The notes under the pieces are model-generated. The model saw only the letters and a program-made list of their open reading frames with translations, was not told the DNA's origin and ran no database searches. This document shows, piece by piece, positions 2,313 to 46,148 of a DNA stretch of 47,611 bases. Source of the DNA: Escherichia phage vB_EcoS_swi2; sequence record NC_054649.1; one strand, given 5' to 3'. Every line of letters begins with the position of its first letter. The stretch's first letter is position 1. The position numbers and the translations under genes were made by a program.

Positions 2313-4734
2313 TATAATAAATGCTCCTTTGTGAATTTGATGTATATTGTATCACGATGACTGAATGGCATATTCGTACATGTCGTCGCTGTATTCGCTC
2401 ATGGTCAGAGTTGTTGTGCCGTCACTTCCCGGATTCTTCTGGCTGACAACCCACAACGTGGTATCAAGCTCTTTCTCAGTGCTCAGCACGTAACGAGATT
2501 CTGATTGCACGTTTGTACCATCCCAGATGTTTAACTTGAAATCTGATGGCAGATTGCAGGTGAATGTATGCAATCCAGTTACTGTGGCTGGCAATCTGTC
2601 TGATACGCTGCCGTCAGAACTGGTAATCACAACATAAAGATTATCATCAGCCGTTAGCTGCTCGCTGGTTGTGAGTGCGTTCCCGTTACGCGCTTCAATA
2701 ACGCCAGTCTGTTGCACGTCATCGTACATATCTACAACCTGAATCATGTCACCTACGTTAACCCATTCACCATCTGCCAGCGCTTTAATTTCCATGCTGC
2801 GACGAGAGTAAATCAGCCTGCGACATTCAAGGATTGCCCGGTCAACAGCCTGATATCGATTGCGAACATAAAGCATGTCGAATTTCTTCGCTTTAGTTGG
2901 CTCGCCTTCTACAATTCCGCTGTTGGTAATTCTATAGTAAACGTTGGCCTGCTTATTCGTTGTTGGGTCTCGATATTCGACGTTAACGCCATCATAAGTG
3001 CCGGGAAGGCTGATATCGTAACTCAGTTTGTAGCCATCGCTCTGCGTGTTTCTGGTATTGAATACAGTAGCTGGATATTCGCGTTTTTCATCACGCGAGA
3101 AACTCATCACTCCATCATCCCAGAATGCGGTGACACGCGCCGCATCGCAGATGGTCTGCAGGCGTTCACCGATGCTCTTATCCTCATCGTCAAACGTATA
3201 ATCGAAATACCCAAGTCGCTCATCAGGCAGGCTATCGGCAATTTCATACAGCTTCACGATGTCGATCGTGTTTTCTGGATTGCCAGCGGTAATCAGCCAG
3301 TTATGCAGAACAGCATCAGCAAAGCTACGAGATGGTGCAAGTGTATAGCGCACCGTGCCAGTATCCCGGTTGTATCCGATGGTATGACGCATGATTAGCG
3401 CATTATATTTCCTGTCACGGCTTCCTGTTGCGTTCTCCGTTGCGCGCACGATAACCTTAACCACCGTATCATCTGGATACGAAACGTTTCTGCGCGTGAC
3501 GATTGAATGCACTTCATCAAGCTGAATGATTGATTCTTGGGTGCTGTTGTTTGTCCTTGTAAACTGAACTGCGTATCTGGCGCTACCATATGATGGCGTT
3601 ATTTTTCTTGTGTAATAGTAGGTATCTGCTCCTCCAGCCACAAAGGTATATGTGGTTGATTGGTATGAACCTGCAATCTGCACGTTATCATCATCCACCG
3701 CCCACCACTCAGCTTTGACAATAGCACCCTGATCTTCACCAAATTGAGCAACAAAGTGGAACCACAGCTGATCACCTTCTATTGGTGAGAAATACGGACC
3801 TGAAACAAGAGGTTGGTTATCAGTAAGGTTGAAGTAAGTGTTATTGATGGTTGCGCCACTCAAGGATGATATCGGTGCGCCTGAGTAGTTGATGTTATTA
3901 ATTATAAATGTATACCAGTAATCAACGGGTGGAATATTTCCATCATCCGTTTCTGATGCTGACACAAGACTACCTGACAAGGTGACGTTTTCAGTGACCG
4001 ACGTGCCGCCGCCAAGCGCGTAAGTGATGTTTAGTTTGAAAACCACATCATGAGGCATAACCAAATCAACAAAGTAATCGAAAGCGGAATTTTTTGGTAT
4101 TTTTACAGCTATTTGTCCGCCAGCAAAGTCAGTGCTGGTCACCGATGTTGTTGTGGCTGACTCAATGACAACAGAGTTAGTGTCGTTTGGCCCATACAGT
4201 TCCTGACCGTCAACGTCATCAAATGCGTAAGGTTCAAGAACAACAGGGATAACTTCTCCAGGCTGATAAATGGTGTAACTAGCGCCAGCCAGAGAGCCGA
4301 GGTTTGATTCCGAATAACGCACAGAAGATACATCATACTTACCGAGGCCAAAGTTCATGAACTCGGTGACGTATTTAATATTATTGATGTATTCGAATAA
4401 TGATTCCTGAAGTAAGTCAGGAAACGCACGAATCTGTCCGAAGTTATCAGGGCGCGCCTCGCCGTTACGAGCAATGTTAGTCTGTGCCTTCAGGCTGGTA
4501 TTTGGTGATGTTTTTGAGCTGGTATCCGTTTTGGGTGTGGATACCTTCGGCGTAAGGAAGGAGAAAATCTTCGTTACTGGTTTCAGTATCGCACCGATCA
4601 GGTCGCCGATTGCGCCGGATGGCTGACAATAAACGTTGACAACGTCGCCATCGCGCAGGCAGAAGGAAAGCTCATCATCTTCACCAAGCACTCTGCCATT
4701 TACCGCAATTGAAATGCTGGCAGGAAGATTTGAT

Positions 4735-11876: not shown

Positions 11877-12344
11877 GTATTTCAGATAGTTTTCGTGAGC
11901 GACTTTGCGGACTTTTTAGAAACTGATCACAAAGATAAATGCAAACGAAGAAATGTATCTGGCCGTAGCTTAACAGCTAAACACAAGTGAGGTATTCCAG
12001 TTCCTCATCAACGAATCTTGCGCACTGGCCCGGTGTGATTAATAATGGGCACACAACGGAAAGAGCATTACTGGTGACGGAGACTAGCGATTAGCTATAT
12101 GCGAAAGTTCTAGAAGCCAAGGCGGTTCGACTCCGCAAGTGCTCTTTCCGGTGTGGTGAATGCGCAGGCTGATGCGCGCAGGAGAGCTTCGGAAGAACAA
12201 GGTGCCTGTATACAAGCCGGAGATCAGCACCGGCCACCACAATACTTAACATCCAGCATTATCGCAATCATATGTAGGGGTATGTATGGGTTACGGGGCT
12301 GGATGTTAAGAAAGCACGCTGGCAATGCTTAAACCAGCACTTAT

Positions 12345-12421
12345 GGACGCGTAGCTTAATTGGTTAAAGCAACCGACTCATAATCGGCTGATTGAAGGTT
12401 CAAATCCGTCCGTGTCCACCA
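12345..12421 (+). tRNA. tRNA-Met (anticodon CAT; could alternatively be Ile2-type)
   Basis: Acceptor GGACGCG pairs with CGTGTCC, D-stem GCTT/AAGC, anticodon loop CTCATAA, T-loop TTCAAAT, 3-prime CCA encoded; terminator follows. Confidence 0.75.
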
Positions 12422-18085: not shown

Positions 18086-18934
18086 TCACGCCAGATAAGT
18101 ATCATCCTCAAACCACGAGACATACGCATTGATATTCTGCACCGCAGTATCCAGTGATGTTATGCGAAGCAGATATGTGGTATTTGGTGCCATGATTATT
18201 TGCTCACCCAATCGAGCCTGCGAGTTACCCTGCCCCTGATTCGATGCATTCCCTTCGCTATACGTTGCTGCAACTGTCAGCTGTCCAATGTTTGTCACTG
18301 TAGAGCCAGTCAGCAGCTGTGCCGTAGCTGCCTGAGGCGTTATGTCGTTGGGATTATTAATCTCCGCAGCAGTACCGCCAGCGGCAACCGCGCCACGATA
18401 GATTGATGCTACGACACCTTTCCCTGTGTAACCAATAATCCGCTGGTTAAATATCACCTGTTTTGTTCCGGTGATAAAAACGCTGTCAAGGTTTGAGCCG
18501 CCAGCAACATCAGTCACCCTGCGCGATGCAGTAAACAGCTTGCCTTGCTTATTGGCGCGCTCAATATATGACTGTGTGGTAATGTCGCTTAACGCCACAT
18601 CAGGCTGAAGGTTTACTACCGATTGAGGAGACACGCCAGCGCGCCACACCGAAACGCGCAGCGAACTTACTGCTGCTGGCAATTCCGTTTTGATTATCTT
18701 CAGGCGCAGCGCTACGCCATAATAATTATTATTGTTGACGTCAATCCAGTAGTTGCCAGATTCAAATGGCGACACTTTCACTGATACGGTGCCACTGACA
18801 AGTGGTGTGTATGCGCCAGATGAATTAATCGGCATCACGTTAACCTGTAGTGCCGTCCAGTCAGCAGACATCAGCTCATCAAGTATCACCTCGCCATCTT
18901 CGCGCGTGGTGAATATGTCGTATCTTACAGCCAT
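18086..18934 (-). CDS. Hypothetical structural protein (capsid- or neck-associated)
   Basis: About 282 aa from first ATG (track ORF begins at alternative TTG 18946); downstream of major capsid gene. Confidence 0.4.
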   Translation of the reverse strand: MAVRYDIFTTREDGEVILDELMSADWTALQVNVMPINSSGAYTPLVSGTVSVKVSPFESGNYWIDVNNNNYYGVALRLKIIKTELPAAVSSLRVSVWRAGVSPQSVVNLQPDVALSDITTQSYIERANKQGKLFTASRRVTDVAGGSNLDSVFITGTKQVIFNQRIIGYTGKGVVASIYRGAVAAGGTAAEINNPNDITPQAATAQLLTGSTVTNIGQLTVAATYSEGNASNQGQGNSQARLGEQIIMAPNTTYLLRITSLDTAVQNINAYVSWFEDDTYLA

Positions 18935-18943
18935 AGAAACCCC

Positions 18944-18970
18944 CAATAAAAAACCCGCATTGTGCGGGTT
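18944..18970 (-). terminator. Minus-strand terminator/attenuator hairpin
   Basis: aacccgca / tgcgggtt stem followed on minus strand by TTTTATT. Confidence 0.45.
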
Positions 18971-18974
18971 CAGT

Positions 18975-19172
18975 TTACTCTGCTTTCTTTCTCTTTGTCG
19001 TCTTTTCTTGCGGGGTTGCGACTTCGAAAGACTTTTCCAGTTCTGGCATGATGCGCAGCTTTGGTAGCAGATGCTCGTCTGGTTCGGTAATCACCTCGCC
19101 AAGCTGCAACTCGCGAATCTTGCCTTTCTCCTTAACAAAGATTCCGCGTGCGATGACTTCGTATTTAGCCAT
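18975..19172 (-). CDS. Small hypothetical protein
   Basis: 65 aa ORF with GAGGTGA RBS. Confidence 0.4.
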   Translation of the reverse strand: MAKYEVIARGIFVKEKGKIRELQLGEVITEPDEHLLPKLRIMPELEKSFEVATPQEKTTKRKKAE

Positions 19173-20288: not shown

Positions 20289-22168
<1,880 letters not shown>

Positions 22169-22505
22169 GGTTAACTCTCCACGGTTAGTTTGTGGTCGAA
22201 TTATAACACAGGGAGATATAGCACCATGAGGCGGTAGCCAGCGCAAATAATGGCGAATTGGTGAGTGCGTATAGCGTGAGAAAGTAAGTGATAGGGATTA
22301 TGTTCATGGGCTACCTCCTGATTAAATGATAGCAGCCCATGATGAACAAAAGATATACGGAGTTAGTCTGAAATCACATCATCCATAAATGCAAGTGCAG
22401 CACCTGACAGGCAGAACAGAGCGCCATAGCAAATCATCTGGTACAGAGTGTCAGCCTCAAATACCCTTGCGAATGCGTAGGCTGATAATATCCAAAGCAA
22501 TGGAA

Positions 22506-22694
22506 TCATGGTCTACCCCTGTTTTCTTTATATAGAGAATCGCAAATCTTACGGTACGCAATGCCAAAGAAGTCGTATTTCTCATTATATCGACCACCTA
22601 CCGCGCTAATTTGATTTGCTGCAATGGTGCTTGCTGCATTAATCAATGCAACCTGAACCTCAACAGGCAGTTCTGGAAATTTTGGCTCGCTCAT
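22506..22694 (-). CDS. Hypothetical protein
   Basis: 62 aa ORF. Confidence 0.3.
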   Translation of the reverse strand: MSEPKFPELPVEVQVALINAASTIAANQISAVGGRYNEKYDFFGIAYRKICDSLYKENRGRP

Positions 22695-23017
22695 AACCCA
22701 GCCTCCTGTTTTGCGCGGTGCACGTATGACATAAACTTGCCAATCGGCATTTCCTTGCGTATTTGCGCCAGAATAGCTCCGTGAATCATCCTTTCCTCGC
22801 CAAAATAAAGTTTATCCAGACGAGTTTTAATAAGTGCTCGCTTGCGCTTCATGTGGTCGCGCGCCTTAAGTGCTTTCTCATGCCAGACGCGGTCGTTCTT
22901 CTTATCCGCATATTGCAGTTGACGATCAACGGTTTCGATTTCAAACGCCAGTTGCACGTCATAATCTTCAAGCTGAATGATGTCTGCTTTCATAATGTCG
23001 TTTAGTTGGATAATCAT
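22691..23017 (-). CDS. Hypothetical protein
   Basis: 108 aa ORF with overlapping start/stop to neighbours. Confidence 0.4.
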   Translation of the reverse strand: MIIQLNDIMKADIIQLEDYDVQLAFEIETVDRQLQYADKKNDRVWHEKALKARDHMKRKRALIKTRLDKLYFGEERMIHGAILAQIRKEMPIGKFMSYVHRAKQEAGL

Positions 23018-23394
23018 TTTTTCACCTCTAATCCTGCTTGCTCAATTACCATTTCATATGCATCCATTGCGTCACCAAATCCATTGGAGTAATCAACCGT
23101 GTAGCCTTTATTTAATGCCGATCTTGAATCAATGAAATCAGGAGACTCAATCTCAACTTCAGCGCGCGATGCCTGCCATGCTTTCCATGCCCATGCAGTT
23201 GGCGAATACACATAATCACAGTCACCATAAACAAGGCTCATTCCGTTCTCTTTGGCCCACCCTTCAAACTGCTTTCTGCTCGTCATCTTCATCTCCTCCA
23301 CTATCCAGCCCATCTTTCTACGGTTATTGGCAATAAACTTATCCGATGTTACAAAAAGAGTCCTGCCAGATTTATGATTAATAGCCCATCTCAT
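23014..23394 (-). CDS. Hypothetical protein
   Basis: 126 aa ORF. Confidence 0.4.
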   Translation of the reverse strand: MRWAINHKSGRTLFVTSDKFIANNRRKMGWIVEEMKMTSRKQFEGWAKENGMSLVYGDCDYVYSPTAWAWKAWQASRAEVEIESPDFIDSRSALNKGYTVDYSNGFGDAMDAYEMVIEQAGLEVKK

Positions 23395-23519
23395 TTAGTA
23401 CATCCTCAGCAAGTTTGCGGAACATAATTTGCACTCTTGCCACTTTGCGCCACTCAGCCTCGGTGAGAATCACATCCTCATGCTGCGGCATTCCCGACAT
23501 TTCGCATGGTGGCAATGGC

Positions 23520-24014
23520 TCATACTCTTGCTTCTTGCGTTTGGCTTTTCCCATGATGACCTCTTGCGCTGCGAAGAAGTGAATTAAACAGGTTGCTCAC
23601 ATTTACTTCCTGCTCCCGCCATGAGTAACGCCACAACTTCTTGTGGTGGTCATAACTTCTCGTCACATCGCCGTTGTGAAACATGATGCGGATGCGGCTT
23701 TTCACTATTCGGTAATCAATGCCAGTGGCTACGCTGATTTCTTTCACTTCCGCACCAGAGTTATCAAGCAAATGGCACTTAATCGCACCATCAATACCAG
23801 CGGAATCATCAGAGATAAAATATTTATACTGCCACTTCCCGCCGCGAATCACTGACTTCTCACGGCGAATAAAGCCAAGCGCAAGCATCTCATGTAAGCG
23901 ATGTGTTGTGGTGCTTGAATGCTTACCGCCGCAATGCTTTTCAATATATGCACGCGTTGCTCCTGGGTGATTCATAATCACGCGCATGATTTGTGATTTA
24001 TAATCCATAATCAC
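23520..24014 (-). CDS. Hypothetical protein, possibly winged-helix DNA-binding
   Basis: 164 aa ORF with two basic helix-rich segments; tentative. Confidence 0.35.
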   Translation of the reverse strand: MIMDYKSQIMRVIMNHPGATRAYIEKHCGGKHSSTTTHRLHEMLALGFIRREKSVIRGGKWQYKYFISDDSAGIDGAIKCHLLDNSGAEVKEISVATGIDYRIVKSRIRIMFHNGDVTRSYDHHKKLWRYSWREQEVNVSNLFNSLLRSARGHHGKSQTQEARV

Positions 24015-24249
24015 GCTCCTGTGCTGCCTGATTGAAGTCGTCGGCTGTGTAGAGGTGTCCGCCTCTTGTGTTCCATGACTTCACTGCTGATGCTTGGTGA
24101 GGCCACTCATCAGTACCACACCCACACTGCGAGCAAGCGACATAAAACGCTCCAGGACCATCGTTATCTATATACGCATGACTATCCCCACAAAACGGAC
24201 ACTCAAGCAGCATTTCATCATTCGTCATCGGCATATGTGGTGCGCTCAT
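23998..24249 (-). CDS. Lar-family restriction alleviation protein (putative anti-restriction)
   Basis: ECPFCG...C-x2-C zinc-ribbon signature typical of Lar-like proteins; GGAGA RBS before ATG 24249. Confidence 0.55.
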   Translation of the reverse strand: MSAPHMPMTNDEMLLECPFCGDSHAYIDNDGPGAFYVACSQCGCGTDEWPHQASAVKSWNTRGGHLYTADDFNQAAQERDYGL

Positions 24250-24440
24250 TTCAACCATTCTCCAAGATTATTAAATTTAGGTGCATCGCCAGACCAGTCG
24301 ATAACGTCTTTCTGCTGACTGCGCTTGCGTTGCAGGCGGTTTCGCACTTCCCGCAGCTCACATTCAAGCCATTCGCGAGTGCGTTCAACTTCATTCAGTC
24401 GCTTGATTAACGATTCCTCGTACAGCTCGTCATGCGCCAT
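24246..24440 (-). CDS. Small coiled-coil hypothetical protein
   Basis: 64 aa ORF overlapping downstream start. Confidence 0.35.
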   Translation of the reverse strand: MAHDELYEESLIKRLNEVERTREWLECELREVRNRLQRKRSQQKDVIDWSGDAPKFNNLGEWLK

Positions 24441-24500
24441 TTATAATTTCTCCCGTAGAATTTGATAACAACGTGCTCAACGCACAGATAACCTTCATCC

Positions 24501-24698
24501 TCAACCGTTACTGGTTGAACTATAAACCACCGCAGATATAAGTTCGTCAGCCTTTTCACGACCTGCAACCTCCGCTTCAAGCGCCAGTGAACACATGGCA
24601 GTTTCCACAAACTTAATGGTATCTTCGCGAACGTTAAGAATCTCCATAACCTCGCGAACTTCTTTCTGGTATCTCGCTGCTATTTCTTTGTATCGCAT
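24501..24698 (-). CDS. Hypothetical protein
   Basis: Internal ATG (MRYKEIAARYQ) preceded by AAAGGTGA RBS. Confidence 0.4.
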   Translation of the reverse strand: MRYKEIAARYQKEVREVMEILNVREDTIKFVETAMCSLALEAEVAGREKADELISAVVYSSTSNG

Positions 24699-24735
24699 TT
24701 CCACATCACCTTTTCCGTTGTGGTACAATCTACGT

Positions 24736-24773
24736 CAATAAGTATTGACTAAGTGATGTAGAAACGTCAAGAT
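24736..24773 (+). promoter_or_regulatory. Promoter-like region with conserved GTGATGTAGAAA motif
   Basis: TTGACT 24745-24750 and GTGATGTAGAAAC 24753-24765; exact -35/-10 assignment ambiguous. Confidence 0.35.
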
Positions 24774-24797
24774 GTTTTTCGAGAAGGAGTAGTAAAT

Positions 24798-24992
24798 ATG
24801 CCAAGACCACGACGCGAGCCGATGGACATTATCACCAGCATTGTTGAGAAGCGGCAGCCGCTGACACTCCGTGATGTTCGCTACTTTGCCCGTTGCTATG
24901 TGGCGCTGGCTGATATGCCAAAGGATGATATGTACCAGATGATTCGTGAGAATTTTAATGTTGATGAAAATAACCGGGTGACGATGAAATGA
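24798..24992 (+). CDS. Hypothetical protein
   Basis: 64 aa ORF with GAAGGAG RBS. Confidence 0.4.
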   Translation: MPRPRREPMDIITSIVEKRQPLTLRDVRYFARCYVALADMPKDDMYQMIRENFNVDENNRVTMK

Positions 24993-27765: not shown

Positions 27766-27798
27766 TATCTACATCAAATGGTGAGTGAGGTGGTGGAT

Positions 27799-28077
27799 AT
27801 GTGTGATTGCATGAACAAAATGGAAGAGTTACTGAAGGAAAGATTGATGGAGCGCGTGCCAAGCGGTTCGGAGGTGAGTTCTAATGTTTTTGACAAAACT
27901 GGTTGGGATAATCAATTCATTAGCCTTTCGTCAGGAAAGGTTTTTGTGATGCTCAAATACAGGCTAGCATACAGGGCAAGAAAGAAAAACGGAGAACTGG
28001 CTAAAAACTTAACAAGATTGGAGTCTAACGTAAAAATGTCATACTGCCCATTTTGTGGCGAGAAGCAGGTGGATTAA
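27799..28077 (+). CDS. Zinc-ribbon hypothetical protein
   Basis: CDC near N-terminus and CPFCG near C-terminus; GAGGTGGTGG RBS. Confidence 0.4.
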   Translation: MCDCMNKMEELLKERLMERVPSGSEVSSNVFDKTGWDNQFISLSSGKVFVMLKYRLAYRARKKNGELAKNLTRLESNVKMSYCPFCGEKQVD

Positions 28078-45032: not shown

Positions 45033-45209
45033 ATGGATATTGAGATTCCGGATAGTTTTGATGCTGAGTGGCAATGCGAAATGCTACGCAATCTTCTTGT
45101 TAAGTTAAACGAACTTGATGATGGAGGTTATGTTGTCAGCGATGGTTATTCATTGCTTGATGATGCAATGAAAATTGTCGAAGCGTTACGTGAATACAGT
45201 GGTGATTAA
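45033..45209 (+). CDS. Small acidic hypothetical protein
   Basis: ATG 45033 with GAGGTG RBS at correct spacing. Confidence 0.35.
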   Translation: MDIEIPDSFDAEWQCEMLRNLLVKLNELDDGGYVVSDGYSLLDDAMKIVEALREYSGD

Positions 45210-46148
45210 ATGAAAGTCTATTTCAATAATGAATTAACTAATGAGCAATACCACGCTGACACAGAGCACATCAACGGTTCTGGCCTGTGGAACATTTATG
45301 ACCGCTGCCCCGCAGCTTGGCGCTACAAAGACGAAGAAGATGAGCAGTCAAAAGCTCTTATCTTCGGAACCGGAAGCCATACGGCTCTACTTGAACCTGA
45401 GCGCTTTGATGCGGAATATGCTCGCATGCCAACCAAAGAAGATTTTGGTGATGACCTGCTTGTTACTGTAAGCGATATGAACTCATGGGCGAAAGAGCGC
45501 GGCATTAAAGGACTATCAGGGAAGTCGAAAGCTGAGGTGATCAAAATAATTCGTGCAACTGGCGAACCAGTGAAGATTTACGACGAAGAGCGTCTTATTG
45601 CTGAAATTAACGCCAATGGTCGCACTCTGTTAGAAGGTGATGATTATGACGTCATTCAGCAAATGCGTGCTGTAATTCACGCAAACAGCTATTACAGCAG
45701 CCTTCTTGCTGGTTCTTATGCTGAAGTATCAATCCTCGGTGAGCTTTACGGGGAAAAGGCAAAGGTTCGGTTTGACTGCCTGACAAAAGGTGGTGACATA
45801 ATTGACTACAAGACAGCGGTAAGCGCCAAGCCTGATGAGTTTTTCCGTCATGCTGCGCGACTTGGCTACTTTATGAAGATGGCGATGCAGCACGACATGT
45901 TTGTTGCGGCATACGGTCATGCGCCGCGTTCTGTAAACCTTTTAGTTCAGGAAAAGAAAGCGCCGTTTATTCCTGCGTTAATTCTCTTGACTGAAGAGCA
46001 ATTACGCATCGGTCGCATTCAGTTGAATGGTGCAATGGAAATTTACAAGGCGTGTAAAAAAGCCAATTCATGGCCGGGTTATTCAATGGGTAATCCTGTT
46101 ATCGAAATGGAAACGCCTGAGTGGTTCAAGAAACAGTTTAATTTATAA
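45210..46148 (+). CDS. PD-(D/E)XK family exonuclease (recombination exonuclease)
   Basis: 312 aa; D ... IIDYK catalytic-like motif; gene context with AAA_24 ATPase and SSB. Confidence 0.6.
   Translation: MKVYFNNELTNEQYHADTEHINGSGLWNIYDRCPAAWRYKDEEDEQSKALIFGTGSHTALLEPERFDAEYARMPTKEDFGDDLLVTVSDMNSWAKERGIKGLSGKSKAEVIKIIRATGEPVKIYDEERLIAEINANGRTLLEGDDYDVIQQMRAVIHANSYYSSLLAGSYAEVSILGELYGEKAKVRFDCLTKGGDIIDYKTAVSAKPDEFFRHAARLGYFMKMAMQHDMFVAAYGHAPRSVNLLVQEKKAPFIPALILLTEEQLRIGRIQLNGAMEIYKACKKANSWPGYSMGNPVIEMETPEWFKKQFNL

Follow-up and report, generated by a model that had tools for sequence, protein, structure and literature searches.

The DNA analysed here, called the window throughout, is the sequence record NC_054649.1 of Escherichia phage vB_EcoS_swi2, 47,611 nucleotides (nt) in length, and the gene under study is a short minus-strand gene that encodes a Lar-like zinc-ribbon protein. 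The window is the genome of a Skatevirus-like siphophage and is ~89-92% identical to its relatives over 60-80% of its length, the matching phages being Salmonella virus VSt472, Escherichia phages Bas77-81, ECO111 5-P and others. Small overlapping genes form a leftward operon here (22363-24698), and the Lar-like gene occupies the third place in it. A preliminary description of this DNA had placed the gene at 23998-24249, and an open reading frame (ORF) is indeed present there. The full ORF spans 23998-24258, which would give a protein of 86 amino acids (aa) if counted from the first ATG (24258). The start at 24249 (MSAPHM...) is better supported, because its ATG overlaps the stop codon of the upstream gene (24246-24440) as ATGA, a GGAG lies about 10 nt upstream of it, and nearly all homologues start at the same N-terminus, M-S/T-A-P-H-M. 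The product is thus 83 aa followed by a stop codon, and not the 84 aa first proposed. The ECPFCG ... C-x2-C signature that had drawn attention to the gene was found as described, with E16-C17-P18-F19-C20-G21 forming the first zinc knuckle and C39-S-Q-C42 the second, followed by W59-N-T-R62. An AlphaFold (AF2) model built from an alignment of 32 orthologues (mean predicted local distance difference test score, pLDDT, 80.9) contains the zinc ribbon strands, a helix at residues 52-59 and a low-confidence C-terminal helix at residues 69-80. As modelled, the protein has a four-cysteine zinc ribbon, after which come the helix and the WNTR motif of the family, and it is predicted to bind zinc. It is also strongly acidic, with a net charge of -9 and an isoelectric point (pI) of 4.3, and the mean net charge of the orthologue group is -7.2.

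Membership of the protein in the Lar zinc-ribbon family (PF14354) is almost beyond doubt. The profile search called for by the preliminary description gave a match to Pfam PF14354 (Lar_restr_allev) at 44.2 bits (E 2.4e-11), above the gathering score of 28.6 and covering residues 17-65 of the 86-aa form, and PHROG 599 ("Lar-like restriction alleviation protein") was matched at 9.5e-17. Nearly all of the close homologues (n=38) have a precomputed PF14354 match. The founding member of the family, Rac Lar of E. coli K-12 (b1348), scores 53.5 bits against the same model, and a BLASTP comparison aligned it with the window protein at 28% identity over 46 aa (E 6e-5), a stretch that spans both zinc knuckles and the WNxR motif. 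WNTR in the window protein corresponds to WNKR in Rac Lar and also lines up with the consensus of the broad family. A hidden Markov model made from broad-family representatives scores the window protein at 77 bits, and its best matches among the viral predicted structures of BFVD are Lar-family entries. The family identity first proposed is therefore sustained by the PF14354 model, the alignment to Rac Lar and the structural matches. Among solved structures, the closest folds are the zinc ribbons of Elf1/ELOF1, aIF2-beta and the TFIIB type, which share the four-cysteine ribbon with its adjoining helix; a sequence search of solved structures with the family profile returned only generic zinc ribbons (e.g. 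aIF2-beta), with E no better than 0.005. Orthologues at the same position in RefSeq and BASEL records already carry the label "Lar-like restriction alleviation protein." The family assignment is thus known from annotated relatives, and the window gene is a new allele of a known gene in an ordinary, already-annotated class.

An exhaustive profile search collected 4990 cluster representatives of the broad family at E <= 0.001, and the profile matches typically stop at about the WNTR motif. Few of these representatives share the C-terminal tail of the window protein, which is therefore specific to a subfamily. Most of the top-scoring representatives consist of 2-5 Lar domains in tandem and contain nothing else that is recognisable as a domain, which hints at a multivalent or dimeric action of the Lar domain. 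Informative partner domains were sought in ten long members of the broad family, and only tandem Lar domains were found.

Within the subfamily, conservation is distributed unevenly along the gene (Table 1). We examined orthologue alignments (sets of 32 and 66) and derived the ratio of nonsynonymous to synonymous polymorphism (pN/pS) from 62 distinct coding sequences, across which C17, C20, C39 and C42 are invariant. The N-terminal peptide PMMNDEGLLECPFCG has a pN/pS of 0.17 at a pS of 0.70 and is conserved at the protein level, and the last 25 residues (WNTR-GHLYTADDFNQAAEERDYGL) have a pN/pS of 0.28 at a pS of 0.50. Both end peptides are under purifying selection as judged from these alignments, and the gene is genuine and selectively maintained. 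For the 37-codon core between them the pN/pS is 0.66, and C39 and C42 are the only invariant positions in it. Synonymous sites are saturated (pS 0.5-0.75). At the nucleotide level, the identity of the aligned relatives to the window is 0.57-0.65 at 24091-24180, against 0.85-0.9 on both sides.

The same step was seen when closely related phages were compared. In 56 phage pairs whose flanks (measured over 650 nt) are 93-97% identical, mean identity is 0.60 in the core and 0.89 in the termini, and identical cores were seen solely in pairs with flanks at least 97% identical. The cores of 66 loci fall into 22 clusters at 60% aa identity, so that at least 22 core types exist, and the variation among them includes indels and wholesale replacement. 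The step in identity speaks for the core having been replaced by unrelated alleles, through recombination inside conserved gene ends, rather than for gradual drift. The five BASEL phages Bas77-81 all come from isolations on the same host background (E. coli K-12 with restored O16 antigen), and four different cores occur among them, none of which is the core type of the window. Four cores on a single host background argue against an invariant, essential host target. A diversity-generating retroelement was considered as the source of the variation and rejected, since no template repeat or second copy of the core lies within the window; the annotation of the relative VSt472 includes no reverse transcriptase. 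The novelty lies in this intragenic mosaic: in a subfamily that is acidic and bears a tail, the core forms a sub-genic cassette and a hotspot of recombination and diversification, which we regard as modestly interesting.

In Bas78 and at two further loci (L059 and L061), the 3' end of the Lar-like gene has been invaded by a gene for an HNH homing endonuclease. The original Lar tail, displaced by this insertion, survives as codons 1-17 of the HNH ORF, and the Lar-like protein encoded at these loci ends in a different but similarly patterned tail (GGFVYSNADYED...). The fact that a look-alike tail is kept after the insertion argues that the tail motif matters.

Table 1. Positions of the Lar-like gene, its segments and the surrounding features (window coordinates unless a locus is named).
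Feature	Position	Strand	Evidence and remarks
Lar-family zinc-ribbon coding sequence	23998..24249	-	ORF, PF14354, PHROG 599, homologues, AF2 model; 83 aa + stop
Conserved N-terminal segment, codons 1-21 (MSAPHMPMxNDEGLLECPFCG), with first zinc knuckle C17/C20	24187..24249	-	orthologue alignments, pN/pS
Hypervariable zinc-ribbon core, codons 22-58	24076..24186	-	identity drop, pN/pS, allele clusters
Conserved C-terminal segment, codons 59-83, WNTR then acidic tail GGHLYTADDFNQAAQERDYGL	24001..24075	-	pN/pS, profile ends
HNH insertion at Lar 3' end	L073 (Bas78) 3465-4206; L059, L061 ~3001-3733; window 24010-24060		
Upstream 64-aa gene, PHROG 15697	24246..24440	-	stop overlaps Lar start (ATGA); in 65/65 related loci
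Downstream winged-helix (MarR-like) gene	23520..24008	-	begins within the Lar 3' end (ATG at 24008, 11-nt overlap)
First operon gene, 65 aa, PHROG 37091	24501..24698	-	PHROG match begins at residue 11 of TTG ORF
Five further small genes (58, 126, 108, 62, 48 aa)	22363..23554	-	PHROG matches; in 7 to 61 of 65 loci
Conserved divergent promoter-like region, 99 bp	24699..24797	.	consensus scan, conservation

The gene neighborhood was explored in 65 related IMG/VR loci. The Lar-like gene appears translationally coupled to its neighbours, and its start and stop codons overlap the adjacent genes. The gene directly after it, present in 63 of the 65 loci and always in this position, encodes a winged-helix protein that matches PHROG 1687 ("MarR family") at 6.7e-58 from residue 3 of a GTG ORF, together with a weak Pfam MarR_2 match. 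Its N-terminal half is MarR-like, and its central part weakly resembles a "Ren-like exclusion protein" (phrog_142, E 1.3e-6). All genes of the operon match PHROG families, and apart from the MarR-like gene the neighbours have no assigned function. In most relatives the 64-aa gene and the Lar-like gene are separated by an additional gene of ~73 aa, which is absent from the window. The preliminary description had counted seven small genes in 22506-24728; the tight minus-strand cluster is there, but it holds the Lar-like gene plus seven others, with a further 48-aa gene at 22363-22509, and its first gene probably starts at ATG 24698, judging from the reading frame and the PHROG match. The proposed placement between the capsid module and a plus-strand block was borne out. 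Downstream on the same strand lie head genes, namely prohead protease/scaffold (20756-22246) and then the head decoration and major capsid proteins, and on the other side a divergent plus-strand block begins at 24798 and is followed by the lysis cassette. The locus had further been called a typical position for anti-defence genes, which holds in a loose sense only. That the region is mosaic agrees with this, several of the other neighbours occurring in just 7-31 of the 65 loci; the Lar-like gene itself, however, was found in every related genome and is a constant member of the module, not a sporadic accessory. It is also the most divergent of the universally present genes of the module, with a mean identity of 58% against 63-77% for the others.

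The intergenic region upstream of the operon is the most widely conserved stretch of the locus (24699-24797; coverage 0.95-0.97). A sigma-70-like consensus scan found a leftward promoter-like match, TTGACG-18-AATACT (24770-24741), and a rightward one with an extended -10, TGgTACAAT, ending at 24729. These hexamers are kept in the 50 loci in which we could find and align the region. The region also contains a 12-nt inverted repeat (24698-24709 and 24753-24764), which may serve the nearby winged-helix protein as an operator. In VSt472 an extra HNH endonuclease gene (L001 5768-6256) lies between the divergent operons; it is absent from the window (~24729-24797).

The restriction-alleviation label of the family goes back to Rac Lar, for which, as cited in PMC4041452 and PMC11482910, King and Murray (1995) described alleviation of EcoKI restriction and enhancement of modification. 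This function was assigned genetically in 1995 and is the only activity ever assigned to the family. Beyond that paper, the RalR paper and a speculative remark on gene 32 of phage Bas63, our search found no mechanistic literature on Lar-family proteins. Rac Lar and the window protein are alike in that both are small, single-domain members of PF14354 encoded by phage DNA, with the CPFC...CxxC ribbon and the helix-WNxR element. They differ in charge, Rac Lar being basic (+5, pI 9.1) and the window protein acidic (-9, pI 4.3), and Rac Lar lacks both the conserved N-terminal peptide and the GHLYTADDF...ERDYGL tail. Their settings differ as well: Rac Lar adjoins recET within a prophage of temperate type and has the antisense RNA RalA as its partner, whereas the window gene belongs to an operon of a lytic siphophage. 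The orthologues in Skatevirus and its relatives (VSt472 gp22, Bas77-81 and IME207 among them) are the same gene, with the same locus, neighbours, termini and cysteines; the core allele differs, the best match from a cultured phage being 77-79% identical and that of a metagenomic protein 92%.

Other anti-restriction proteins offer looser parallels. Rac Lar was reported to act like lambda Ral, that is, to alleviate EcoKI restriction through faster modification. No sequence relationship links Ral to the window protein, however, and a Pfam scan of the latter at E up to 1 gave no match to the Ral family; any functional equivalence here would be by analogy. Ral is not known to be a zinc ribbon. T7 Ocr and ArdA are, like the window protein, small and strongly acidic products of phages or plasmids, and they act on type I enzymes by protein binding. 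Their folds are nevertheless unrelated, no Pfam or structural match to them was obtained for the window protein, an 83-aa zinc ribbon does not have the size needed for mimicry of an extended DNA segment, and relatives of the window phage are not protected from type I restriction.

Our best overall explanation, to which we give about an even chance of being right, is that this is a real Lar-family gene whose product acts as a host-protein binder, probably in counter-defence. As for the counter-defence role exerted through binding to a host protein, we lean slightly in its favour. The acidity, the allele-swapping core and the constant termini make binding to a polymorphic, non-essential host protein, rather than to DNA, the most likely mode of action. 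The variable face of the ribbon would then set which variant of the host protein is recognised, and the conserved termini would supply a common fold or an effector contact. The outcome would be a counter-defence function of narrow spectrum, as the swapping core, the conserved termini and the four core alleles in five phages of the same host suggest. Since restriction alleviation is the only activity ever assigned to the family, the leading specific candidate would be that the protein modulates a type I (family IA) restriction-modification (RM) enzyme in the manner of Lar and Ral. Restriction alleviation specifically, an analogy with the founder, we consider less likely than not, and a defence system other than type IA may be about as likely a target. 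It is possible, although we would not wager on it, that in this acidic, tail-bearing subfamily the ribbon core is an exchangeable specificity cassette and the termini a constant effector module, each allele neutralising one variant of a host defence; the targets could be, for example, the allelic HsdM/HsdS subunits of type I systems or another variable system. If true, this would explain the lack of effect against a few laboratory RM systems.

Several observations weigh against our best explanation. The BASEL study described Bas77-81, the nearest cultured relatives with an orthologue in this position, as distinctly susceptible to RM systems, and Bas77-80 are restricted by all six RM systems assayed there. 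From the raw counts, the efficiency of plating (EOP) of Bas77-80 is 0.02-0.2 on EcoKI with one site and 1e-4 to 1e-3 on the type IB system EcoCFT_I with 2-3 sites; on the type II and III systems (EcoRI, EcoRV, EcoCFT_II and EcoP1) the values run from 1e-5 down to 1e-7 or less. Restriction per site is similar for type IA and type IB, so that no alleviation is visible. The window contains three EcoKI sites (AACN6GTGC; 15199, 31741 and 44887), compared with 7.3 +/- 2.7 expected, and its BASEL relatives have 1-2, which suggests that the phage group avoids EcoKI sites; such avoidance would be less necessary given an effective anti-EcoKI factor. The match to NCBIfam TIGR03655 (anti_R_Lar), full-length at 38.8 bits (E 8.4e-10), falls 0.8 bit under the cut-off of 39.6, and the similarity to Rac Lar is confined to the zinc-ribbon scaffold. 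The founder itself has been re-described: b1348 is now named ralR, "endodeoxyribonuclease toxin RalR." Finally, the ubiquity of the gene in relatives and its tight link to the winged-helix gene fit a core regulatory role as well. The functional reading as restriction alleviation is thus somewhat undermined by the sensitivity of the relatives and the re-description of the founder. PADLOC models gave no match for the Lar-like protein or either neighbour, and neither a second Lar domain nor an Ocr-like acidic protein was found in the window. VSt472 (L070) has two proteins without a window counterpart, a second Lar-domain protein that lacks the tail (gp76, 45106-45294) and a very acidic 86-aa "anti-restriction protein" (gp39, 18887-19147).

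Three other roles were weighed against the preferred one. The re-description of the founder raises the idea that the window gene encodes a small RalR-like nuclease or toxin that cuts host or competing DNA non-specifically, RalR, the toxin of a type I toxin-antitoxin pair, having been reported to act as a non-specific DNase that cuts methylated and unmethylated DNA. That b1348 is annotated as a DNase toxin, has reported DNA cleavage and matches the same Pfam model as the window protein favours this idea, but the 28% identity to RalR is limited to scaffold residues, and the Pfam and structure searches found no nuclease motif or fold. The strong acidity of the group (mean -7.2; -9 in the window against +5) is unfavourable for DNA binding and hence argues against such a nuclease. 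A RalR-type system would combine a basic, DNA-cleaving protein with an antisense RNA antitoxin; the charge here is -9, and the Rfam scan found no such family in the window and no RNA family near the gene. We consider this role highly improbable. An unlikely but more credible alternative is that the protein is a core regulatory or replication accessory factor, for instance a zinc-ribbon partner of the winged-helix protein, of a polymerase or of a primase, which would touch its partner through the conserved termini and whose core is simply unconstrained. Here the fold matches hold at the generic zinc-ribbon level only. Unrelated core alleles between phages with 93-97% identical flanks are unusual for a housekeeping partner, and the divergence of the Lar-like gene, the highest among the universal module genes (58% mean identity against 63-77%), also speaks against this role.

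It could also be that the protein counters a defence other than type I RM, such as a type IV system, "restriction alleviation" being only a historical label; taken as a full alternative, we judge this rather unlikely. For gene 32 of Bas63, described as a close Lar homologue ("90% homology"), essentiality was lower in DH10B than in three other strains; an intact type I system is missing from two of these, type IV systems absent from DH10B are present in all three, and the authors of that work proposed type IV as the target (PMC11482910). A diverse target would fit the allelic diversity of the core, and the relatives show no visible alleviation of restriction by type I, II or III systems. The BASEL panel, on the other hand, revealed no special resistance of these phages to other systems; most are still somewhat sensitive to Old, although Bas80 is not.

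The Lar family is very widespread among phages, with ~5000 cluster representatives matching the profile, and the label "Lar-like restriction alleviation" has been widely copied by automated annotation from a single genetic result of 1995. The fact that the charge and tail of this subfamily differ from those of the founder, that its carriers are sensitive to restriction and that its core is swappable suggests that the label is better read as the name of a fold than as that of a function. If the core is indeed a specificity cassette, then the five BASEL phages, among which four alleles occur naturally on a single K-12 background, would be a convenient starting point in the search for the target.

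Two minor observations were made elsewhere in the window. A tRNA-Met (CAT) gene at 12345-12421 was called by both Rfam and ARAGORN and is the sole Rfam family in the window; an overlapping ARAGORN call of a transfer-messenger RNA (tmRNA; 12047-12421) is probably spurious. A 99-aa ORF on the plus strand (27778-28077), ending in ...MSYCPFCGEKQVD*, contains a lone CPFCG knuckle and weakly matches the N-terminal Lar profile (E 0.004); it may be a truncated zinc-ribbon or an HNH-associated remnant.
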